A stretch of DNA of 62,009 nucleotides, from assembly GCA_026388515.1 (NCBI GenBank), contig JAPLJO010000032.1, positions 1-62,009 on the forward strand. Direction: 5' to 3'. Shown here in pieces: positions 7,274-59,959 of the stretch; the first letter of the stretch is position 1; each line of letters begins with the position of its first letter. The notes beneath the pieces were generated by a model. That model ran no database searches. It was given only the letters and a program-made list of their open reading frames with translations, and was not told the origin of the DNA. The DNA is from Deltaproteobacteria bacterium. GTDB lineage: Bacteria > Desulfobacterota > Syntrophia > Syntrophales > UBA2210. A program made the position numbers and the translations under genes.

Positions 7274-7349
7274 GCTGGCGTAGCTCAACAGGTAGAGCAG
7301 CTGATTTGTAATCAGCAGGTTGCGGGTTCGAGTCCCATCGCCAGCTCCA
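7274..7349 (+). tRNA. tRNA-Thr(TGT)
   Basis: GCTGGCG.../...CGCCAGC acceptor, anticodon loop TTTGTAA, GGTTCGAGTCC T-arm, CCA encoded. Confidence 0.9.
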
Positions 7350-7362
7350 TGGATAACGATAG

Positions 7363-7450
<88 letters not shown>

Positions 7451-7522
7451 TAACAACTAAAGGATGACGTTTTCGCAAAATGTCGGAAGTCGGACTTTTT
7501 CGAAGCCATCAAAGATACGAGT

Positions 7523-7598
7523 GCGGGAGTAGCTCAGTGGCTAGAGCGTCAGCCTTCCAAGCTGAGGGTCGCGGGTTCGAATCCCGTTTCCCGCTCCA
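7523..7598 (+). tRNA. tRNA-Gly(TCC)
   Basis: GCGGGAG/TTCCCGC acceptor, anticodon loop CTTCCAA, GGTTCGAATCC, CCA encoded. Confidence 0.9.
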
Positions 7599-7653
7599 TT
7601 ATTTTATACGTGCGAACACATATACAAGAGTGAAGGAGTCGACGTCCCGGCAG

Positions 7654-7729
7654 GCCCACGTAGCTCAGTCGGTAGAGCACATCCTTGGTAAGGATGAGGT
7701 CACCAGTTCAATCCTGGTCGTGGGCTCCA
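7654..7729 (+). tRNA. tRNA-Thr(GGT)
   Basis: GCCCACG/CGTGGGC acceptor, anticodon loop TTGGTAA, AGTTCAATCCT, CCA encoded. Confidence 0.9.
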
Positions 7730-7751
7730 TTTCAGTGGAGGCGGTTTAAGG

Positions 7752-7901
7752 ATGAGAGAGATAATCACACTTGCGTGCAGCCAGTGCAAACAGAGGAACT
7801 ACTCGACGACGAAAAACAAGAAGGAGGACAAGGACCGTCTTGAATTGAAGAAGTACTGCCGGTTCTGCCGGGTCCACACGCTTCATAAGGAAACGAAGTA
7901 A
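7752..7901 (+). CDS. rpmG: 50S ribosomal protein L33 (49 aa, below the ORF-track cutoff)
   Basis: Manual translation gives [49 protein letters not shown], with CxxC...CxxC and SD aagga upstream. Confidence 0.9.
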
Positions 7902-7920
7902 CACTCAATGGCAGACACAC

Positions 7921-7997
7921 AGGCCAGTAGCTCTAATGGCTAGAGCACCGGTCTCCAAATCCGGGTGTTGGGGGTTCGAGTCCCTCCTGGCCTGCCA
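7921..7997 (+). tRNA. tRNA-Trp(CCA)
   Basis: AGGCCAG/CTGGCCT acceptor, anticodon loop CTCCAAA, GGTTCGAGTCC, CCA encoded. Confidence 0.9.
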
Positions 7998-49611: not shown

Positions 49612-51066
49612 ATGCTGAAATCGATCGAAGGGAGCCCGCTCTATCCTATCGTCAATCCCCGCAGTGTGGTCTTCTTCGGGGCATCGAACAGGGCCTCGGC
49701 CATGGGGACATCCCAGCTCCTCTCACTGAAGGTGCTGGGATACCAGGGGGCCGTCTATCCCGTTCACCCGAAGGAAACCACCGTACAGGGACTGCCCGCC
49801 TACCGGCATATCAGGGACATCCCGGAAATACCCGACCTCGCGGTGATTGTCCTTACGGCGCCGCTTGCCTGCGAAGCCCTTGAGGAATGCGCCGAAGCGG
49901 GGATGAAATCCGCCATCGTCATTTCCGGTGGATTCAGGGAGGCAGGCCCTGAAGGCGCCGCGATGGAACGCCGTCTCGTGGAGACGGCAAAGACCCACGG
50001 CATGCGGTTTCTGGGGCCGAACTGCATCGGTGTTGCCAATCCTCACCAGCAGGTGAATACGACATTTCTCAGGTACGAGGGAAACCCCGGGTTCATCGGC
50101 CTGGCGTCCCAGAGCGGAAGTTACGTCACCCAGATGTTCCACTACCTCTCACAGTTCAGTCTCGGGTTCAGCGCAGCCTTCAGTGTGGGGAACGAGGCGA
50201 ACGTGGATATCGTGGACTGCATGGAATACCTCGGCGCCTGCCCTCACACACGGGTGATCGCCCTCTATATCGAGGCGATACGGCGGGGACGGGAGTTCGT
50301 GGAGGTGGCGCGCTCTATTGTCCCCCATAAGCCCATCGTGGCCTACTATGCAGGCGGGTCGGAAATGGGGAGACGTGCCGGCTTTTCCCATACCGGCGCC
50401 ATGGCCGGGCCCGACCGCCTCTACGACGGCGTGTTCCGCCAGAGCGGCGTCCTGCGCGCGCAGTCCATGACGGAGCTTTTCGATTTCTGCATGGCGCTGG
50501 GTAACCTTCCTCCGCCGGCGGGAAGGAGGGTCATGATACAGACCCATTCGGGCGGGCCCGGGGCTGCCGCCGCTGATGCCTGCGGACGTGCGGGGCTGGA
50601 ACTTCCGGAAGTCTCGCGCAATGCCGTGGAAAAACTCTCCCCCTACATCCCTCCCACGGGGAGCACCGCAAATCCGCTGGATATCACCTACAGCAGGAAC
50701 GTCATGGACTATTTTCTAAAAATTCCCAAGGTGCTGCTCGCGGATGACGCTATCGACATCTTTCTCTTCTATATTCTCATGCCTTCGGATATGGTGAGAG
50801 CGTCGTTCCGCGACTTGGGTGTTCCCAGCGAAGAAGTGGAAGAAAAAAGCGAGAGCTTCCTGAATAACCTGAGCTCCTACGTGGCGCACCTGAGAGAGGA
50901 GTACGGGAAACCCCTCGTGGGATTTACTTACCGGAGCTTCAATGAACGCTTTGTCGCCGGACTTCTGGAGCAGGGCATTCCCGTCTATGCGGGACCGGAG
51001 CGGGCCATACGGGCGATACAGGCGCTGGTGCGGTACCATGAGATCAAGAGTAAGATCAGGAATTAA
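49612..51066 (+). CDS. Acyl-CoA synthetase (NDP-forming) alpha-type / CoA-binding protein, 484 aa
   Basis: PRSVVFFGAS...VYPVHPK...LAVIVL (CoA-binding), then ISGGFREAG and FLGPNCIGV (succinyl-CoA-ligase-like). Confidence 0.75.
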   Translation: MLKSIEGSPLYPIVNPRSVVFFGASNRASAMGTSQLLSLKVLGYQGAVYPVHPKETTVQGLPAYRHIRDIPEIPDLAVIVLTAPLACEALEECAEAGMKSAIVISGGFREAGPEGAAMERRLVETAKTHGMRFLGPNCIGVANPHQQVNTTFLRYEGNPGFIGLASQSGSYVTQMFHYLSQFSLGFSAAFSVGNEANVDIVDCMEYLGACPHTRVIALYIEAIRRGREFVEVARSIVPHKPIVAYYAGGSEMGRRAGFSHTGAMAGPDRLYDGVFRQSGVLRAQSMTELFDFCMALGNLPPPAGRRVMIQTHSGGPGAAAADACGRAGLELPEVSRNAVEKLSPYIPPTGSTANPLDITYSRNVMDYFLKIPKVLLADDAIDIFLFYILMPSDMVRASFRDLGVPSEEVEEKSESFLNNLSSYVAHLREEYGKPLVGFTYRSFNERFVAGLLEQGIPVYAGPERAIRAIQALVRYHEIKSKIRN

Positions 51067-51140: not shown

Positions 51141-52340
51141 TTGCCGGTGAATGAATCCGCAGGTGGACGTCTCATTATCTATTTTGACAATGCCGCCACG
51201 TCATTTCCAAAGCCTCCCGGCGTGATCGATGCCGTGGTGCATTTCATGACAAGCGCGGGAGGGAATCCCGGCCGGTCGGGGCACCCGCTCTCCGTGGCCG
51301 CGGGCGAGATCGTCTTTGCCGCCCGGAAGGCGGTGGCGCGCCTTTTCGGTGTGGCCAATCCGATGCATGTCATATTCACCGCGAACGCCACCACCGCACT
51401 CAATCTTGCGATCCAGGGCATCACCCGCCAGGGCGATCACGTCATCACCACCTCGATGGAGCACAACAGCGTCATCCGTCCCCTCGTGGAAATGGAACGC
51501 CAGGGCAGAATCATCCTTTCCATCGTTCCCTGCTCGCCGGAGGGAATCATCGACATGAGGGCCCTTGAAAAGACGGTCATGGCGGAAACGCGCGTCATGG
51601 TCGTCAATCATGCCTCGAATGTCGCCGGTACGGTGCAGCCCCTCGTAGAAATCGGGGCCTTCTGCAGAAAGCGCGGCATCATCCTCATTGCCGATTGTGC
51701 CCAGTCGGCGGGCATCATCGATATCAGCGTGGAAGAAGAGTGCGTGGACCTTCTCGCCTTTTCAGGACACAAGGGGCTCTACGGACCCACCGGCACCGGG
51801 GGGCTTGTCATTGCCGAAAACTTCGATGCGTCCCGGCTCTCGCCTCTTATCTTCGGGGGGACGGGAAGCTTCTCCGACAAGCCGGTTCAGCCGCCTTTCC
51901 TGCCGGACCGTTTCGAGAGCGGTACGCTGAACGCCGCCGGAATCAGCGGCCTCGGGGCCGGCATTTCCTATCTCCTTGATGCATACCCCGGCGGCCTCAA
52001 GGGTGTGAGGGTGCACAAGGAACGACTCGTCAATTGCTTCCATGAAAAGGCCGCACGGGACCTGAAGGGATATATCGCCTGTGTGCCGGCACCGCAGGTG
52101 AAAACCGGTGTCGTCTCCTTCAACCTCCGCATGCGGTCGCCCTCCGAGGTGGCGAGGATACTCGCCGGGGAGTACGGCATCATGTCCAGGGCGGGTCTTC
52201 ACTGCGCACCCCTTGCCCACCGGACCATGTCAACCTTTCCCCACGGCACGGTCCGCTTCGGCTTCGGCATTTTTAATACAGAGGAAGAAATCGGGATCGC
52301 CGTCTCGGCACTCAAAGCCATAGAGGAGAGGAACGACTGA
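51141..52340 (+). CDS. Class V aminotransferase, cysteine desulfurase family (TTG start)
   Basis: YFDNAATSFPKP and FSGHKGLYGPTGTGGL (PLP-Lys). 399 aa. Confidence 0.8.
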   Translation: MPVNESAGGRLIIYFDNAATSFPKPPGVIDAVVHFMTSAGGNPGRSGHPLSVAAGEIVFAARKAVARLFGVANPMHVIFTANATTALNLAIQGITRQGDHVITTSMEHNSVIRPLVEMERQGRIILSIVPCSPEGIIDMRALEKTVMAETRVMVVNHASNVAGTVQPLVEIGAFCRKRGIILIADCAQSAGIIDISVEEECVDLLAFSGHKGLYGPTGTGGLVIAENFDASRLSPLIFGGTGSFSDKPVQPPFLPDRFESGTLNAAGISGLGAGISYLLDAYPGGLKGVRVHKERLVNCFHEKAARDLKGYIACVPAPQVKTGVVSFNLRMRSPSEVARILAGEYGIMSRAGLHCAPLAHRTMSTFPHGTVRFGFGIFNTEEEIGIAVSALKAIEERND

Positions 52341-52343
52341 TCC

Positions 52344-52577
52344 ATGGCGCGCCATGCGGTAATCCTCTTCTTTTCCACCAATTACGCCATCTGGGCCTCC
52401 GATGAACTGAAGCGCGCGGGGATTCCCTTCAAGATGATTCCCGTTCCCCGGCACCTGAGTTCCGACTGCGGCGCCTGTCTCCGTGTTGAGAAGGCTGATA
52501 CGGGGCGCGTCGAGGCGCTCCTCAAGGCGCAGTCAATCGACTATGACCGGTGCGAAGACCTTCCGGCGTCTCAGTAG
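52344..52577 (+). CDS. DUF3343 / putative Se-S carrier-like small protein, 77 aa
   Basis: AVILFFSTNYAIWASDELKRAGIPFKMIPVPRHLSSDCGACLRV matches the DUF3343 pattern. It starts 3 nt after the desulfurase stop. Confidence 0.7.
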   Translation: MARHAVILFFSTNYAIWASDELKRAGIPFKMIPVPRHLSSDCGACLRVEKADTGRVEALLKAQSIDYDRCEDLPASQ

Positions 52578-53611
52578 ATGTAAGAAATCATGATCGATCC
52601 GAAATGGTGGTTTCCGTCCTGTCCCTCGAATTCTCGTGTTCTCGTGACCTGCGCGTAGGAGAGCATGAAGCGGTACCAGGTGAGACAGATTCCCGTGGTG
52701 AGGTCCGCCACAAAGAGATTCTTCTCCACATTATTGCTTTTCGTGAAGGTGTTCCCGTCGAGAAAGACATCCCGGAGCACGAGACGTCCTTCCACCGACG
52801 CGAAGGCGTAGAGGCTGAAAGGGTAGTTTTCCGAGAGCCTGGGGTCATGTGAGTCTGCGGGTGCGCTCGTACCGCCCGCGGGCCGGATGAGCGACGTGCC
52901 GAAATCATAGGGAATACTCCAGCCGGCCCTCGCTTCAATGCCCGTCGAAACACAGGTCAGTACGTTTCCCGCGGCACCGCCCAGGTATGTAATCGCGTCG
53001 ATATCAAACTCCTCTGTCAGGCCGGTACGGAAAAACCGGTACTTCCGCTCGCCGGTGATGACAAGGCCCGGTTCATTTCTCAACTGGTTGTCCCAGCCGT
53101 TCGGTATATCGACGTGTTTTATTTTGTGGACAAGCCGCTGGGTATTTTCAGCGTAAGACTGGGGGCCGATAATGCCGAGTGCGAATTCAAGCGAATCCAG
53201 GCGCCGGTCGTTTTTGCTGTGGAAGCCGGTACTGAGATAGGTCCATCCCGCATAGGGGCGGTCATCGGTGACGAGGTCATGACGGTACGTGTCTTCCGGT
53301 GTGTACATGTTCTGTCCGATGGAGAAAGAAATGTTGTGGAGGAGCCCCGGTTCGTTGATGAAGGGAAGTTTTTCAATGACGGGAAGAATCCACCCTGGGA
53401 GTTTTCCTGCTTCGGCGAAGCTTACGAGGTCCCTGGATACCCAGGTGAGCTTCACACCGTTGGTATAGTGTTCATCCGTTCCCGAGAAAAGGTCGTTTTC
53501 AAGGTAGAAGCTGAGTGTATGGGCCTCTTCCAGCTTTACCGCCGCCGCCGGCCCCGTGAGGAGTCCCGTCACCGCGAGTACGAGAAGCACAAGGACGCGT
53601 ATTTTTTTCAT
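52571..53611 (-). CDS. lpxR: Lipid A deacylase LpxR-family outer membrane protein
   Basis: Signal peptide MKKIRVLVLLVLAV, then FYLENDLFSGTDEHYTNGVKLTW. Internal ATG chosen (the track ORF extends to 53716). The 3' end overlaps the convergent DUF3343 gene by 7 nt. Confidence 0.75.
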   Translation of the reverse strand: MKKIRVLVLLVLAVTGLLTGPAAAVKLEEAHTLSFYLENDLFSGTDEHYTNGVKLTWVSRDLVSFAEAGKLPGWILPVIEKLPFINEPGLLHNISFSIGQNMYTPEDTYRHDLVTDDRPYAGWTYLSTGFHSKNDRRLDSLEFALGIIGPQSYAENTQRLVHKIKHVDIPNGWDNQLRNEPGLVITGERKYRFFRTGLTEEFDIDAITYLGGAAGNVLTCVSTGIEARAGWSIPYDFGTSLIRPAGGTSAPADSHDPRLSENYPFSLYAFASVEGRLVLRDVFLDGNTFTKSNNVEKNLFVADLTTGICLTWYRFMLSYAQVTRTREFEGQDGNHHFGSIMISYIY

Positions 53612-53731
53612 GGCATGACCCGGAAGCGCTTTTATCACACGGCAGATGAGAAGCCCGCCGCCGCCATTACTTCTCGCCGCCAGCGATTTGACGGCGTTGC
53701 AGAAAGGCAGGAACACGTCACACTGTGGCGA

Positions 53732-56086
53732 CTACATGTAGCGGCGGTGCTGTATGGCCTGTATGAAACCGACGGCGCCGGGAGAAATCTGCGCCGCGTT
53801 CGCCTCGTCGGTATCGAGGTGCATATCAATCCTGAAGTCGGGGTGAACCCGGATGAGCACGTCGCCGTAAATCAATTCCCGCACACCCGCCACCTTTACC
53901 ATCACCACGTCTCTATCCCTCAGTCCCAGCCGGAGGGCCTCTTCGGTGGACATGTGGATGTGACGCTTCGCGCAGATGACGCCCTTGTCCAGCGTGAAGG
54001 CGCCGGCCGCGCCCTCGATCCTGAGTCCCGGTGTCCCCTCGATGTCTCCCGAATCTCTGATGGGAGCGTCGATGCCGAGCCTGAACTGCTCGGTCCGCGA
54101 GATTTCAATCTGGGACTCTTTTCTGGTGGGGCCGAGGATTCTCACGCGGTCAATCTTTCCCTTGGGTCCGATGAGGTTGACCGTTTCCTCTGCGGCGTAC
54201 TGTCCCGGCTGGCTCAGCTCCGATTTGGGCTTCATGGTCCTTCCGCGGCCGAAGAGTGTTTCGAAATCGGCCTGGCTCAGATGGACATGGTGAGCCGAGG
54301 TGCTCAGCGGCACTCCCGTTGAGCTGAAGGCCAGGATCGTCTCTTCCGGCCGCACCCTGCCGAGGGCATGGATTGTTTCCCGGGCGATCATTTTTTCCTC
54401 ATCCGCGGGGACCACGAGGGCACGCACTTTCGCGCCCGGCTCTGAAATATCGACAACGGTGCCGCGCTGCGCCTTCGTTTTTCTGTTCGTATAGTTGCAG
54501 AGGACGATGCCGAAGGGGTCCAGACCCTGGCAGATGCGCGCCCGGATTTCCGGCGAATTTTCGCCGATTCCCCCTGTGAAGATGAGGGCATCTACACCGC
54601 CCAGGGCAGCAAGATAGGCGCCGACGTATTTTCTCACGCGGTAGCAGAAGACGCTGACGGCCTGCTTGCAGCGCTCGTCACCCCGTTCGGCGGCTTCAAG
54701 CACTTCCCTCATGTCGTTGCTTCTGCCGCTGATTCCCTTGAGGCCGCTCTCCTTGTTCAGCATCTTGTCAATCGCCTCCGGGCTCATGCCTGCGTGCCTC
54801 ATGAGGTGCAGGATTACGCCGGGGTCGATGTCGCCGGCCCTGGTCCCCATGACCAGCCCTTCGAGGGGAGTCATCCCCATGCTCGTATCGATGCTCTGCC
54901 CGTGGTCAACGGCGCACACGGAGGCGCCGCTCCCGAGGTGGCAGGATATGATTTTCAACTCTCCCACGGGATGTTTCAGAAACGTGGCCGCAGAGAGCGC
55001 CACGAACTTGTGGTTGGTGCCGTGGAATCCGTAGCGTCGGATCTGTTCGGCTTCGCAGATCTGGTAGGGGAGGGCGTAGGTATAGGCGCTTGCCGGCATG
55101 GTCAGGTGAAAGGAAGTATCGAAGACAGCCACCTGCGGTGCCTGGGGGATCAGCCGCTGCATGAGATCGATGCCTTCGAGGTTATAGGGATTGTGGAGCG
55201 GTGCGAGGGTGAAAAAGGACCGTATCGATTCGGTCACGTCATCGTCCACCACGACGGAACTGGGATACTTGCTGCCGCCGTGAACCACCCGGTGTCCTAT
55301 CGCTTTTATTTCACCAAGTTCTTTGACGACGCCGAGGGAGGGGTCGGTCAGCGTGGTAACCATGGTCTGAAAGGCGGCCTCGGCATCAGCTACATCCTCA
55401 GCCGGCAGTTCCTTCCGGCCGCCGGGGGTTTTTATCGTGTGAAGCGTGTCCTTTGTGCCGATCCGTTCTATGAGGCCCTCGATGAGGGGGCTCGTTTTCT
55501 GGGTATCGAAGAGGGAGTATTTCAGGGAAGAGCTCCCGCAGTTGACCACGAGGATTTTCATCGCTTCCGAGACGGAGGAAAAATTGAGGTCGTAGGGGTC
55601 TTCGTTTTCCTTGTGGGCCTGTTTCAGCCGTTCCCTCTGGTCCTCGTCCCTCTCATTCTGGAGCATGCGCCTCGTGATGACCCGCGTCACCTTGGCAAGC
55701 GTGGCGTGATTGCCCGCCATCACCCGGGAGAAGACCTCGCGGGGAATTTTCACGACCTTGCAGGTCATTCCCGCCGTCACGTTGGCCGTGGCGGGCTCCC
55801 CCGTCATGATGGACATCTCGCCGAACACCTCGCCCCGTTCGAGGGAGGCAATCACCCTGCCTTCGCCGCCCGCTTCCGGGATCGAGACATCCACATGCCC
55901 GTCATAGACAATCCAGAGATAGCGGCCGATGTCCCCCATTTTTATAATGGAGGCCATGGGTGGATATTCGATGAGTTCGGCCCCGGCGGCGAGGAGCGAC
56001 ACTTCCTCGTCATTGAGGTCAGAGAGCATCCCGATGGACTTGATAAATTGCGAAAGGTTCATCGTTTCCATTCCTTTCCCGGGCAA
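53732..56086 (-). CDS. Triple fusion: cyclic-nucleotide-binding domain + acetate/propionate kinase + PduL-type phosphotransacylase, 784 aa
   Basis: aa ~15-140 cNMP-binding (RGEVFGEMSIMTGEPATA); nt ~55666-56044. aa 176-575 AckA (MKILVVNCGSSSLKY, FHGTNH, IFTGGIGENS); nt 54362-55561. aa ~590-775 PduL (SAHHVHLS, AKRHIHMS, LDTDEANA); nt 53762-54319. One uninterrupted frame. Confidence 0.85.
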   Translation of the reverse strand: MPGKGMETMNLSQFIKSIGMLSDLNDEEVSLLAAGAELIEYPPMASIIKMGDIGRYLWIVYDGHVDVSIPEAGGEGRVIASLERGEVFGEMSIMTGEPATANVTAGMTCKVVKIPREVFSRVMAGNHATLAKVTRVITRRMLQNERDEDQRERLKQAHKENEDPYDLNFSSVSEAMKILVVNCGSSSLKYSLFDTQKTSPLIEGLIERIGTKDTLHTIKTPGGRKELPAEDVADAEAAFQTMVTTLTDPSLGVVKELGEIKAIGHRVVHGGSKYPSSVVVDDDVTESIRSFFTLAPLHNPYNLEGIDLMQRLIPQAPQVAVFDTSFHLTMPASAYTYALPYQICEAEQIRRYGFHGTNHKFVALSAATFLKHPVGELKIISCHLGSGASVCAVDHGQSIDTSMGMTPLEGLVMGTRAGDIDPGVILHLMRHAGMSPEAIDKMLNKESGLKGISGRSNDMREVLEAAERGDERCKQAVSVFCYRVRKYVGAYLAALGGVDALIFTGGIGENSPEIRARICQGLDPFGIVLCNYTNRKTKAQRGTVVDISEPGAKVRALVVPADEEKMIARETIHALGRVRPEETILAFSSTGVPLSTSAHHVHLSQADFETLFGRGRTMKPKSELSQPGQYAAEETVNLIGPKGKIDRVRILGPTRKESQIEISRTEQFRLGIDAPIRDSGDIEGTPGLRIEGAAGAFTLDKGVICAKRHIHMSTEEALRLGLRDRDVVMVKVAGVRELIYGDVLIRVHPDFRIDMHLDTDEANAAQISPGAVGFIQAIQHRRYM

Positions 56087-56342: not shown

Positions 56343-57248
56343 TCACAGGTATGAATCAAAACGTCCGTCCCTCACGCGGTGGTCGGCCCGCGCCCATTTG
56401 TTTTTACTCACCGTCTCCTGTACCACCGCGAGGCGGTCCGCCATGCCCGGGTGGGTTGAAAAGAATCCCCTCGTGCCCCCGGCTTTTTCTTCCTTTGCAA
56501 GCGTTGCGAGGTAATCGGGCATGCCGTTCGGGTCGTACCCTATGCGGTTCATGATGACGAGCGCGCCCTGATCGGCGGCCCGTTCCTGTTCCCGGCTGTA
56601 CCCGTTTGTGACGAGCGTTTTTACCACGTCGTTCACCGATCCTTCGAAGAGCGACGTCAGCTTCGCGATATCGCCTGAGCCATAGGTGCCGGCGACGTCG
56701 GACCCCAGGGCGGTGACCACTTCGAGCCACCGGGAATTCTGTATCGCCCTGACTCCGTCCCGGTGATTCACGTGGGCGATTTCATGGGCAAGGATTGATG
56801 CCAGCTCCTCTTCGTTTTTCGCCCTTGTAAGCATGCCGCGGCTCACGAAAATAATCCCCCCGGGACAGGCAAGGGCATTGACCTCATCGGTGGCGAGAAT
56901 GGCAAAGTGATACCCGCCGTAGGTCAGGGGAACATCGGATACCATGGCAAGTGCCTGTCCCACCTGGTTGACGTATGTCGTCAGTTTTTCATTCTGATCC
57001 AGTTTATATGTGCCGAGAATCGTCGCCGCGACGGCTCGTCCCAGGAAATATTCTTCCTTTTCCGTCATGGGACGTGCGGCGCGTTCAGCACCCTTTGCCG
57101 TTCGGTCGATGATTTCCTTGTCCTTCGCCGTAATCACCCCCATCTCCTGCCCTGCCGTCGTTCCCACCTTAACAACCTCGGCGCAGCCGGGCATCAGGAG
57201 AAGAAAGGTGAGGATGAATGCCATATGAAGCACGTGGTGACGTTTCAT
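56343..57248 (-). CDS. M48-family Zn metallopeptidase lipoprotein
   Basis: Lipobox LLMPGC and HEIAHVNHRD (HExxH). Confidence 0.8.
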   Translation of the reverse strand: MKRHHVLHMAFILTFLLLMPGCAEVVKVGTTAGQEMGVITAKDKEIIDRTAKGAERAARPMTEKEEYFLGRAVAATILGTYKLDQNEKLTTYVNQVGQALAMVSDVPLTYGGYHFAILATDEVNALACPGGIIFVSRGMLTRAKNEEELASILAHEIAHVNHRDGVRAIQNSRWLEVVTALGSDVAGTYGSGDIAKLTSLFEGSVNDVVKTLVTNGYSREQERAADQGALVIMNRIGYDPNGMPDYLATLAKEEKAGGTRGFFSTHPGMADRLAVVQETVSKNKWARADHRVRDGRFDSYL

Positions 57249-57721
57249 GATTCACCTCCCGGTTCCCTGAGCTTACCGGCCCGAATGAAGGCCTGAATCT
57301 TCTCATCGGTTATTCGATAGGATTCGACCTGGTTCACGAGGTCGTATCTCATCGCCGGGTTTTTATCGTGGAACGCCTTCTCCACCTCCGGGGTGAACCC
57401 CTTGCCGGCAAGGGCCACTTCGTCTTTCGTGGATTCCGCCGCCTTTCCTCCCCCAAGTGCCGTCCAGTCGATCTTCAGTTCCGTAACGGCGCTTTTATGA
57501 ATCCATCCCTGCGTGCCCCTGTAGGTGACGTTCAGCCAGTCTCCCTTTACTTCCCGGCTCTCGACCTTCTCGCCATAGGGTACGCGTATCACGATGGGGG
57601 CGAAGAAACGCCGGTCCTTCCTCACCGCCGCCTCCTCGTTGATGACCCGGTACGTGGCCGCATAGGCCGCGGCGCCCATGGTGAGCAGCACCACGAGGCA
57701 GCACCACAGCATCTTTTTCAT
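57245..57721 (-). CDS. Exported bacterial SH3-domain protein, 158 aa
   Basis: Signal peptide. SH3b-like VRVPYGEKVESREVKGDWLNVTYRGTQGWIHKSAV. ATGA overlap with the M48 gene. Confidence 0.65.
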   Translation of the reverse strand: MKKMLWCCLVVLLTMGAAAYAATYRVINEEAAVRKDRRFFAPIVIRVPYGEKVESREVKGDWLNVTYRGTQGWIHKSAVTELKIDWTALGGGKAAESTKDEVALAGKGFTPEVEKAFHDKNPAMRYDLVNQVESYRITDEKIQAFIRAGKLREPGGES

Positions 57722-57772
57722 GTATGTTCCCCTTCCTTTCCTGTGTAATTGCCGTATCGCGGATTGACGGTA

Positions 57773-59959
57773 CTACTTTGTCGTGAGCCGGTAGACACCG
57801 TCCCACCCTGCGGGCGGTGGATCTTTCATGAAGGCTTCGCACCGCTGAATGAACGTCTTCGAGGGACCATCGCCGGGATTGACCGCCAGCGCCTGCCGGA
57901 AGCTGGAGACGGCCTCGTCCCACCTCATTGCCCTGTACTGTACGAGTCCCTCGGTAAAGAGGCGCGCCGTCTCTTTCATTCCATCGTCGAGGGCGCCCGA
58001 TCTTGCCAGCACCTCGTAAATGCGGACGGGTTTTTCTTTGCCCTTTACCTGAAGAAGATCGAGCTCCCGCACTTCAATCCGGTCCTCTGCCTGCCGCCAG
58101 GTCTCCTCGCTGATGGTGATATGGGTCCCGTATTCCTTTCCGGCACCCTCGAGCCGCGAGGCCAGGTTGACGCTATCCCCGATAACGGTAAAGTCGAAGC
58201 GCTTGCTGGAGCCCATATTCCCGATGATCATCTCACCGGTATTGATGCCGATACGCGCATAGACCGGGGGGAGCCCCGCCCGCTGGAATTCCTCGCGGAG
58301 CCCGACGAGGCGCTCCTGGTTATCCAGGGCGGCGAGACAGGCCCGTGCCGCGTGGTCTTCCTGTTGGACGGGCGATCCCCAGAAGGCCATGATGGCGTCG
58401 CCCTCGTACTTGTCGATGATGCCGCCGCTCTCCAAAATGATGTCCGTCATGGCGGTGAGATATTTGTTGAGGAGGCCCACCACCTCCTCGGGCGAGAGCA
58501 TTTCCGACATCGAGGTGAACCCGGCGAGATCCGAAAAGAACACTGAAAGCACGCGTCGCTCACCGCCGAGCCGGAGCTTTTCAGGATTCCTGAGGAGGTC
58601 CTGAATGAGAAGATCGGACATATAGTGCGAGAAGGTCTGCTTGATCTGGCGCTTGTGCCGGCCTTCCGTGGCGTAACTGAACGCCGCCGTGAAGGCAAAC
58701 GCGAATCCCAGGGAGGCGAGAAGCAAAATCGCATCAACCCAGAGGTTCCGGTGGAAGGCGAAGAGAATAAACGCGAGAAGACCGCCGGTATAACAAAGAA
58801 CGGTGAGGAGCAAAGTCCCGTAGCCGCCGGCGAGCATTACCGTAATCCCCGTGAAGACGGCAACGGCGGCGGAGAGCGAAAACACGGCGGGAGGGGAGAT
58901 GCGTGTCCTGAAGTCTTTCTGAAGGAGGTTTGCGACCAGGGTCGCATGGATGGAGACGCCGGGGTAAATTGAGCTTACCGGTGTTGATTTCATGTCGAAG
59001 AGTCCCGGTGCCGTGAAACCGATAAAGACGATTTTATCCTTGAACGATTCCGGTGCATAGAGAGGCTTCCGCCCCTCCTCAAGGGCGAGAGCAGACGAGA
59101 TGACGTTGTAGGCGGAGTAGCGCTGATATTCCCTGTCCGGATCGTAGTAGGTAAGAAGAAACGTCCGCTGCCCGTCCAGCGGCACCGTAAGGCCGCCGAT
59201 TACCATTCCATCTTTCCTGAAAGAAACTGTACCGCCTCCCTCTGCGTCCCGGAAAGCCGCAAGCCCTATGGCGGGAATCCAGTCGGAGCGGTAACAGAAC
59301 GCCGGGGGAATACGCCGGAATATGCCGTCCGTGTCCGGAAAGGTTTTGACGTTACCAAATCCCCGGGCGGCCTCCGAGAGCGCCCTGACCGGAGGAATCA
59401 TGGAATTGTTTCCGGGTGTGGCGCATTGATCATCTTTCGCGAGAGGAAGTGCCGTTTTCGTAATTATTTCACGTTCCCACGGCTCTTCACCGCGGGCTTC
59501 CCCGCTCAGGAAGACGGGAAGATAGACATGGCCGTTGTCCCTCAGCGCCTCCGCGAGAAGATCATCATCCTCGACACCGTAGGAAGATGGTTCCGTATAG
59601 AGAATGTCGAACACCACCGCCTTTGCGCCGGCGCGCGTGGCGAACCGGACAATGGGCGCATACATCTGCCGCGGCCACGGCCAGTTGATTCCCTGCGCCC
59701 GGGCGGCGTCCAGGCTCCCCTGGTCCACGGCCACCAGGACAATATCCCGGGGAGCGGCCTTGCCGGCAACGAAAAACTGGCAGAGCCGGTCGTACGCCTT
59801 GAGCTCGAAGGATTCGAGAAAGCCGGTGAAATGGAGCGGGAGCATGAGAATCCAGACAATGATGCCGATGACGGTGCCGGCAGCGATTTTGCCTTTTTTC
59901 TCGAAAAGGGTGGCGAAGCGCATGGTAAAATTCTTACCCGGAGGGATACGCGAAGTCAA
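57773..59959 (-). CDS. CHASE2-domain class III adenylate/guanylate cyclase, 728 aa
   Basis: N-terminal TM, periplasmic CHASE2-like region and a TM bundle. Cyclase core VLSVFFSDLAGFTS...GDAIMAFWG...IGINTGEMIIGNMGS..RFDFTVIGDSVNLASRLEG. TPR-like tail. Confidence 0.85.
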   Translation of the reverse strand: MTSRIPPGKNFTMRFATLFEKKGKIAAGTVIGIIVWILMLPLHFTGFLESFELKAYDRLCQFFVAGKAAPRDIVLVAVDQGSLDAARAQGINWPWPRQMYAPIVRFATRAGAKAVVFDILYTEPSSYGVEDDDLLAEALRDNGHVYLPVFLSGEARGEEPWEREIITKTALPLAKDDQCATPGNNSMIPPVRALSEAARGFGNVKTFPDTDGIFRRIPPAFCYRSDWIPAIGLAAFRDAEGGGTVSFRKDGMVIGGLTVPLDGQRTFLLTYYDPDREYQRYSAYNVISSALALEEGRKPLYAPESFKDKIVFIGFTAPGLFDMKSTPVSSIYPGVSIHATLVANLLQKDFRTRISPPAVFSLSAAVAVFTGITVMLAGGYGTLLLTVLCYTGGLLAFILFAFHRNLWVDAILLLASLGFAFAFTAAFSYATEGRHKRQIKQTFSHYMSDLLIQDLLRNPEKLRLGGERRVLSVFFSDLAGFTSMSEMLSPEEVVGLLNKYLTAMTDIILESGGIIDKYEGDAIMAFWGSPVQQEDHAARACLAALDNQERLVGLREEFQRAGLPPVYARIGINTGEMIIGNMGSSKRFDFTVIGDSVNLASRLEGAGKEYGTHITISEETWRQAEDRIEVRELDLLQVKGKEKPVRIYEVLARSGALDDGMKETARLFTEGLVQYRAMRWDEAVSSFRQALAVNPGDGPSKTFIQRCEAFMKDPPPAGWDGVYRLTTK

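Follow-up and report, generated by a model that had tools for sequence, protein, structure and literature searches.

PduL-type phosphotransacylases convert acyl-CoA and inorganic phosphate into acyl-phosphate and CoA, and acetate kinases (Ack) convert acyl-phosphate and ADP into the free acid and ATP; both reactions are reversible. Pat of mycobacteria is a cAMP-regulated protein acetyltransferase that controls acetyl-CoA synthetase and is composed of a cyclic nucleotide-binding (CNB) domain and a GNAT domain; its phosphate-binding cassette (PBC) is canonical and contains the arginine, and the protein binds cAMP. Among bacterial CNB domains that gate an enzyme allosterically, we take that of Pat to be the nearest precedent. 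Here we analyze a gene from a 62,009-nucleotide stretch of DNA of a bacterium of the order Syntrophales (GenBank assembly GCA_026388515.1, contig JAPLJO010000032.1; the whole stretch is referred to as the window), whose product joins an N-terminal CNB-fold domain, an acetate kinase and a PduL-type phosphotransacylase in one polypeptide. With slightly better than even confidence, we read this protein as a bifunctional Ack-PduL enzyme that would work outside microcompartments and would carry a regulatory CNB domain sensing an effector other than a cyclic nucleotide monophosphate (cNMP).

Ack, PduL, and Ack-PduL fusions are already known. Erbilgin et al. 2016 (PLoS Biol) described PF06130 multidomain proteins annotated as acetate kinases and proposed channeling (PMC4784909). 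Those fusions and the protein from the window share the order Ack then PduL without an encapsulation peptide, but the N-terminal CNB-fold domain and the conserved linker present here are not mentioned in that paper; no biochemical characterization of such fusions was found in the literature searched. In the literature searched we found no description of a CNB-Ack or CNB-Ack-PduL enzyme, and a 2007 census of the CNB family lists no acetate-kinase-linked family (PMC2246266). An earlier reading of this DNA from its letters alone (the sequence-only reading) had stated that it knew of no characterized enzyme with this three-part architecture; none was found in the same literature, where the added N-terminal domain appears undescribed. 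The CNB-capped version sits in databases under a generic kinase name, automated annotation giving only 'acetate/propionate family kinase'. Pat and the protein described here have in common an N-terminal CNB-fold domain fused to an enzyme of acetyl-CoA/acetate metabolism, but the PBC here lacks the arginine and the catalytic partner is unrelated; a weak NCBIfam match to NF058543 (E 0.0027) was also recorded.

Three modules in a single conserved polypeptide

The gene occupies a single unbroken frame on the minus strand (53732..56086), which spans 784 amino acids (aa) in the open reading frame (ORF) listing when counted from a TTG at 56086. In an alignment with 119 homologues, the start methionine of 118 corresponds to residue 9 of this frame. 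Because homologues start at this methionine and an AAGGA-type ribosome-binding site lies upstream of the corresponding ATG at 56062, we take the coding sequence (CDS) to begin there (Table 1); this ATG is most likely the true start, giving 776 aa, and the TTG is probably not a start codon. The uninterrupted frame described in the sequence-only reading is thus upheld, while its length of 784 aa gives way to 776. Residues are numbered below on the 776-aa protein, except for Pfam ranges, which follow the 784-aa frame. All of the motifs quoted earlier (MKILVVNCGSSSLKY, FHGTNH, IFTGGIGENS, SAHHVHLS, AKRHIHMS, and LDTDEANA) were found in the translation, and the two junctions proposed with them, for which no strand had been given, 55562-55665 and 54320-54362, match the CNB/Ack and Ack/PduL boundaries, on the minus strand only.

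Profile searches recover three modules along this frame. The Pfam cNMP_binding profile (PF00027) matches aa 39-124 (E 1e-17; 64.3 bits against a cutoff of 27.5), Acetate_kinase (PF00871) matches aa 177-569 over profile positions 1-392 of 392 (489 bits, E 1e-146), and PTAC/PduL (PF06130) matches aa 594-767 over profile positions 2-175 of 176 (248 bits, E 5e-74). Among NCBIfam models, TIGR00016 (acetate/propionate family kinase) covers the middle part with 488.9 bits (cutoff 293.4) and NF011652 (phosphate propanoyltransferase) the C-terminal part with 251.2 (cutoff 209). With Pfam and NCBIfam profiles above their curated cutoffs and the fold comparisons given below in agreement, all three modules that had been claimed are present.

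The same architecture is found well beyond the window. As close homologues we used the 120 best-scoring 90%-identity clusters from a collection of 5.8 billion proteins. The same three Pfam domains are present across these clusters, with the exception of a 691-aa entry for which just the two enzyme domains are listed; apart from this entry the proteins are 771-789 aa long, and identity to the query ranges from 60 to 98%. The clusters derive from NCBI, JGI, ENA, and Logan assemblies, with contigs of up to 4 Mb, and those that are named are 'acetate/propionate family kinase' proteins of Smithellaceae, Syntrophaceae, Syntrophales, or Smithella metagenome-assembled genomes (MAGs). An exhaustive HMMER search over 1.84 billion 50%-identity representatives returned about 13 representative clusters of three-module length (763-799 aa) with identity down to 34%, together with two-module CNB-Ack proteins of ~570-580 aa and two-module Ack-PduL proteins of ~590-650 aa, the latter being the direct relatives of the fusion (P0134, P0135, P0141). 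When one genome per GTDB species was scanned, full-length three-module ORFs turned up in Syntrophaceae, Candidatus Magnetominusculus (Nitrospirota), and several Verrucomicrobiota, including the cultured Chthoniobacter flavus Ellin428, as well as in Margulisiibacteriota, Binatia, and Elusimicrobia, so that the architecture spans six phyla. Because it recurs across independent assemblies, sources, and lineages, the single-protein fusion is real and widely conserved, and not an artefact of assembly or frameshift.

Both enzyme modules look catalytically competent as judged by their residues and folds. Fold comparisons were made with Foldseek on an AlphaFold2 (AF2) model of the full-length protein, whose mean predicted local distance difference test (pLDDT) score is 79. 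The Ack module matches the acetate kinase of M. thermophila (1G99) with 50% identity and a TMt of 0.88. The two proteins share the ASKHA fold and the active-site residues: N7, S10, S12, K14, R91, H123, D148, H180, H208, R241, R285, and E384 are conserved according to the alignment with 1TUU/1G99 and the family table; 1TUY is a further structure of the M. thermophila enzyme. The full acetate/propionate kinase described in the sequence-only reading is therefore borne out by full-length profile, fold, and active site together. The sole mismatch among the active-site residues checked is a serine in place of N211 (M. thermophila numbering; codon 54929-54931, minus strand), with the result that the PHOSPHATE-2 motif of this Ack subfamily reads CHLGSG and not CHLGNG. 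We take this position to be implicated in the phosphoryl-donor/nucleotide specificity of other acetate kinases, and therefore the nucleotide preference of the module may differ. This serine and the extra, predicted regulatory domain set the protein apart from stand-alone acetate kinases. The NCBIfam equivalog models, which would separate acetate from propionate kinases, all score below cutoff (for example, NF009045 with 410 against 580).

The C-terminal module matches R. palustris PduL (5CUO) with 48% identity and a TM of 0.70. As in this metabolosome enzyme, the PF06130 repeat is double, and H592, H594, E653, H701, H703, and H748 (the HxH/E/HxH/H pattern) have matching His/Glu counterparts in the alignment to 5CUO and do not vary across the family; we take these residues to be the metal ligands of PduL in that structure. 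A PduL module with two signature repeats, as first read from the sequence, is thus supported by a profile match over both repeats and by the conserved pattern. In contrast to metabolosome PduL, the module has no encapsulation peptide, its N-terminus being fused to the kinase, and there are no shell genes nearby: no microcompartment shell domains were found among the ORFs scanned at 36.8-61.2 kb. The bacterial microcompartment (BMC) EutD model of NCBIfam also stays below cutoff (226 against 315), and with these three observations an association of the module with BMCs was ruled out. Compared with the classical Pta-AckA pathway the net chemistry is the same, but the role of Pta (PF01515) falls here to PduL (PF06130), which is joined covalently to the kinase.

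Several distant three-module clades depart from this pattern. P0122, P0123, P0125, P0127, P0129, P0130, P0139, and P0147 have degenerate Ack residues (N7, S10, S12, K14, R91, H123, and others) with an intact PduL, P0124 is the reverse case, retaining the Ack residues but not the His/Glu residues of PduL, and P0132 has lost both sets. By their residues, these proteins look like pseudo-enzyme derivatives of the three-module architecture.

The phosphate-binding cassette and the linker

The N-terminal domain unambiguously has a CNB fold. Its sequence matches in the PDB are the CNB domains of PKG, PKA-R, CAP, and SthK, and Foldseek on the AF2 models aligns it with 5JIZ (TMt 0.84) and 4QXK (0.82). 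In canonical CNB domains the PBC follows the motif FGE[LIV]AL[LIMV]X[PV]R[ANQV] (PMC2246266), in which the arginine (R209 of PKA RIα) coordinates and neutralizes the cyclic phosphate (PMC2246266; PMC10959531). The cassette here reads FGEMSIMTGEP-A-T-ANVTA, and HMMER aligns Ala91 to the PBC arginine (PKA RIα R209 / CAP R82). The arginine is missing from the whole family: in the alignment of 120 sequences this column holds alanine in 100, threonine in 12, valine in 4, and serine in 1, the remaining three also not being arginine; one glutamate occurs in the 71-sequence subset; and in 24 distant CNB-bearing representatives or loci from six phyla R is again missing, the residue being A, I, S, T, V, or M. 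Because the arginine is absent both from close homologues and from distant members in six phyla, its loss is ancient and family-wide, as far as these alignments reach, and includes the two-module CNB-Ack proteins. The following residue is mostly valine or isoleucine, and position 94 is mostly aspartate or asparagine. Direct control by cAMP or cGMP, as proposed in the sequence-only reading, is thus unsupported: where the arginine would be, the family has Ala, Val, Thr, Ile, Ser, Met, or Glu.

The rest of the cassette is retained. G81, E82, and Met83 are invariant, and the Gly-Glu pair, which contacts the ribose 2'-OH in the canonical PBC, is thereby kept. Mean pairwise identity is 0.75 over the PBC and 0.71 over the beta2-beta3 loop, compared to 0.46 elsewhere in the CNB core, 0.66 for Ack, and 0.76 for PduL. 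The possibility raised earlier that the pocket residues are degenerate therefore holds in that they are non-canonical, and fails in that there is no decay, the PBC being the best-conserved part of the domain. This conservation argues for a functional pocket or interface. Since the arginine is lost while pocket loop and linker motif are conserved, the domain is probably a functional regulator with a non-canonical effector, and not a receptor for cAMP or cGMP.

Another conserved feature of the pocket region is Arg47, invariant in the close family, which takes the place of RIα Asp170, the partner of R209, beside Gly169. The loop with Gly169 and Asp170 contacts R209 in canonical CNB domains (PMC2246266). 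Among the distant clades, which likewise lack the PBC arginine, only a few keep Arg47. A relocated arginine, with R47 standing in for R209, was considered and is kept only as a caveat.

The most conserved short element of the N-terminal third is the linker motif DPYDLNFSS (Table 1). Its residues D155, P156, Y157, D158, L159, and S163 do not vary in 71/71 and 120/120 homologues, the region that contains it (aa 153-164) has a mean pairwise identity of 0.82, and distant clades retain a related motif, [DE]PY[DGA]Lx[LF]. On this conservation the motif is an obvious candidate for relaying a signal to the kinase. When aa 1-200 are modeled by themselves, AF2 leaves the motif disordered (pLDDT <50 at 154-157), and in the full-length model its pLDDT is 63-79, which hints that it may pack on the kinase and not in the CNB pocket; the alignment behind these models is shallow.

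Proposed function and its alternatives

The reading that we favor builds on the observed architecture and its conservation, on catalytic residues that are intact, and on a PBC that has lost its arginine, and takes its two-step reaction from enzymology. The PduL domain would convert acetyl-CoA (possibly propionyl-CoA) and phosphate to acyl-phosphate and CoA, and the Ack domain would transfer the phosphoryl group to ADP to give ATP and the free acid, or run in reverse for acetate activation. The net reaction stated in the sequence-only reading, acyl-CoA + Pi + ADP to acid + CoA + ATP, is the one expected from what is established about both enzyme families. Fusion would set a 1:1 stoichiometry and hold the labile acyl-phosphate near the kinase, between the fused active sites; channeling of this kind is a reasonable suggestion, but it has already been published for Ack-PduL fusions (PMC4784909) and so is not new. 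The protein would be an Ack-type dimer, and the CNB-fold domain would respond to a small effector other than a cNMP and signal to the Ack dimer via the alpha-C helix and the DPYDLNFSS linker.

As to what the N-terminal domain senses, we rank a non-cNMP small molecule first, a ligand-free or self-liganded module second, and a canonical cNMP third. Our more specific and tentative suggestion, one we would sooner doubt than accept, is that the domain binds a metabolite other than a cyclic nucleotide, for example a nucleoside, an adenylate, or a compound related to CoA or acyl-phosphate, and thereby gates the fused PduL-Ack allosterically. CNB-fold domains without the arginine are known with other ligands: trypanosomatid PKA-R, in which R209 is replaced by Thr or Asn and A210 by Val, binds nucleosides (PMC10959531), and the arginine-less domain of CooA binds haem (PMC2246266). 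The protein described here is structurally similar to trypanosomatid PKA-R (6FLO/6HYI) at 26-27% identity; common to both are the CNB fold, the retained Gly-Glu pair, the replacement of R209 by a small or polar residue, and a valine at the A210 position. The glutamate that selects the nucleoside there (A202 position) is Ser or Ala here, however, and therefore the same ligand cannot be assumed.

Several points weigh against a non-cNMP receptor that gates the enzyme. Arg47 might in principle substitute for the lost PBC arginine by supplying positive charge, and a cyclase gene lies 1.7 kb upstream on the same strand in this window, so that cNMP binding keeps some probability. A protein-protein or intramolecular interface would explain the conserved pocket just as well. 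Finally, a prediction of the inter-domain structure, which the sequence-only reading had suggested, was made with AF2 and gave domains that are individually confident but no inter-domain arrangement (predicted template modeling score, pTM, 0.59; low-confidence linkers).

An alternative that we regard as rather unlikely, though the better of those that dispense with a new ligand, is that the CNB-fold domain has no diffusible ligand and acts as a dimerization or auto-inhibitory module, maybe liganded by its own DPY-D-L motif. The analogy is with the CNB homology domains of KCNH channels, which lack the arginine and have no cyclic-nucleotide ligand but hold an intrinsic one, a Tyr-x-Leu motif. 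The linker motif here is invariant and comes shortly after the alpha-C helix, its Tyr and Leu recur in distant clades, and the conserved pocket would fit an intramolecular interface. The AF2 models, in which the motif is disordered next to the isolated domain and better defined in the full-length protein, count weakly against such self-liganding, given the shallow alignment.

It is less likely still, and we consider it improbable, that the N-terminal domain is a genuine cAMP or cGMP receptor controlling substrate-level phosphorylation, perhaps fed by the CHASE2-cyclase upstream. The Pfam cNMP_binding match above cutoff, the nearest structures, which are cNMP-bound PKA/PKG domains, the invariant Gly-Glu ribose contacts, the cyclase gene, and an invariant R47 that might put a guanidinium near the pocket all speak for such a receptor. 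However, the PBC arginine is missing from every member examined, the residue after it is mostly Val/Ile and not Ser, Thr, or Ala, position 94 is mostly Asp/Asn, and the arginine-less CNB domains cited above bind other ligands or, in KCNH channels, no diffusible one. R47, moreover, is not conserved in most of the distant three-domain clades, which also lose the PBC arginine. A cyclase or CHASE2 gene was found nearby in 0/3 gene-annotated homologous neighborhoods and at 0/14 loci searched by tblastn, and the homologous neighborhoods are unrelated to one another. Because these loci lack cyclase and CHASE2, we treat the adjacency as coincidental. As for the remaining explanation, that the frame is an artefact of assembly chimerism or sequencing error joining sensor, ack, and pduL genes, no support was found, though a related MAG locus (L007) does have a frameshifted copy, and the unbroken architecture in the best 120 clusters from independent sources, contigs of 0.7-4 Mb, a cultured isolate genome, and the junction motif invariant across homologues make it vanishingly improbable.

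The fusion bears on how energy metabolism is reconstructed in these organisms. Syntrophales live near the thermodynamic limit. Syntrophus aciditrophicus has no Ack or Pta and synthesizes ATP via Acs1 (PMC4992975); in contrast, a fused and probably regulated PduL-Ack is present in many other Syntrophales (Smithellaceae, Syntrophaceae), and members of five further phyla have the same architecture. Pathway surveys based on Pta (PF01515) would score such genomes as lacking a phosphotransacylase. The protein also offers a natural, conserved case of a predicted allosteric domain on an ATP-yielding fermentation step, and a clear case in which a cNMP_binding Pfam match should not be equated with cAMP sensing; the surprising element is the conserved non-canonical sensor domain on that step, and not cAMP control as such. 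If the domain is a receptor for a metabolite other than a cNMP, it would represent a hitherto unrecognized point at which substrate-level phosphorylation is controlled directly, both in syntrophs short of energy and in several other phyla, and a new ligand class for bacterial CNB domains.

Genomic surroundings and related loci

The features of the fusion gene and of its surroundings are collected in Table 1. The neighbors of the fusion gene are housekeeping genes (rpoA, lptD, Mur ligase, asd, terC) and, directly downstream, lpxR. A scan for promoters and terminators around the fusion gene gave counts near the shuffle expectation, with no terminator after the stop codon. Riboswitches and other structured RNAs were looked for in the 280-nt 5' region, and the Rfam matches in the window are five tRNAs (7.3-8.0 kb) only. 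The two ORFs that overlap the gene on the opposite strand are probably not genes, because strong homology backs the sense frame.

Table 1. Features of the fusion gene and of its surroundings in the window.
Feature	Coordinates	Strand	Basis or remark
CDS of the three-module protein, 776 aa and stop	53732..56062	minus	ORF list, conserved ATG start, translation checked
CNB-fold domain, aa 1-148: beta-barrel and long alpha-C helix (aa 119-148)	55619..56062	minus	PF00027, PDB hits, AF2/Foldseek
Non-canonical PBC FGEMSIMTGEPATANVTA, aa 80-97	55772..55825	minus	Alignments to PKG/PKA PBCs, column counts
Linker motif DPYDLNFSS, aa 155-163, between alpha-C helix and first kinase strand	55574..55600	minus	Invariant columns
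Acetate/propionate kinase domain, aa 168-567	54362..55561	minus	PF00871, TIGR00016, 1G99 match, active-site residues
Ack-PduL connector, short and poorly conserved, aa 568-585	54308..54361	minus	Mean pairwise identity 0.45, pLDDT ~67-69
PduL-type phosphotransacylase, aa 586-776, both PF06130 repeats	53735..54307	minus	PF06130, NF011652, 5CUO match
LpxR (lipid A 3'-O-deacylase family) outer-membrane protein	52571-53716	minus	Directly downstream of the fusion gene
M48 peptidase gene	56343-57248	minus	Cluster ends 280 nt upstream of the fusion CDS
SH3-domain protein gene	57245-57721	minus	In the cluster upstream of the fusion gene
CHASE2-adenylate/guanylate cyclase gene	57773-59959	minus	1.7 kb upstream of the fusion gene
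Antisense ORF, 402 aa	53114-54322	plus	Overlaps the fusion gene
Antisense ORF, 433 aa	54794-56095	plus	Overlaps the fusion gene
484-aa protein with CoA_binding, Succ_CoA_lig, and Ligase_CoA_2	49612-51066	plus	2.7 kb from the fusion gene
Class-V aminotransferase or cysteine-desulfurase-like gene	51141-52340	plus	Follows the gene of the 484-aa protein
Cluster of five tRNA genes	7274-7994	plus

The cyclase, SH3-domain, and M48 peptidase genes form a cluster (56343-59959, minus strand) that looks like a self-contained membrane signaling module. A functional link between this cluster and the fusion gene as a general feature was considered and rejected, neither cyclase nor CHASE2 being found near the gene in the 3 annotated neighborhoods and at the 14 loci.

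A related locus in a MAG labelled Syntrophus aciditrophicus (L007:6001-7190) carries a CNB-Ack frame that breaks after CHLGSGASVCA and resumes out of frame, and is either a frameshifted pseudogene or the product of a sequencing error. The break is of note in that cultured S. aciditrophicus has been reported to be without acetate kinase.

Between the fusion gene and the gene of the LpxR outer-membrane protein no terminator-like site was seen. The Pfam match of this protein starts at aa 47 of the ORF, so that translation may in fact begin further downstream than the first GTG. The 484-aa protein shows no ATP-grasp domain among its matches and resembles the alpha part of an ADP-forming acyl-CoA synthetase, which makes it a possible second enzyme acting on acetyl-CoA/acetate in the window.

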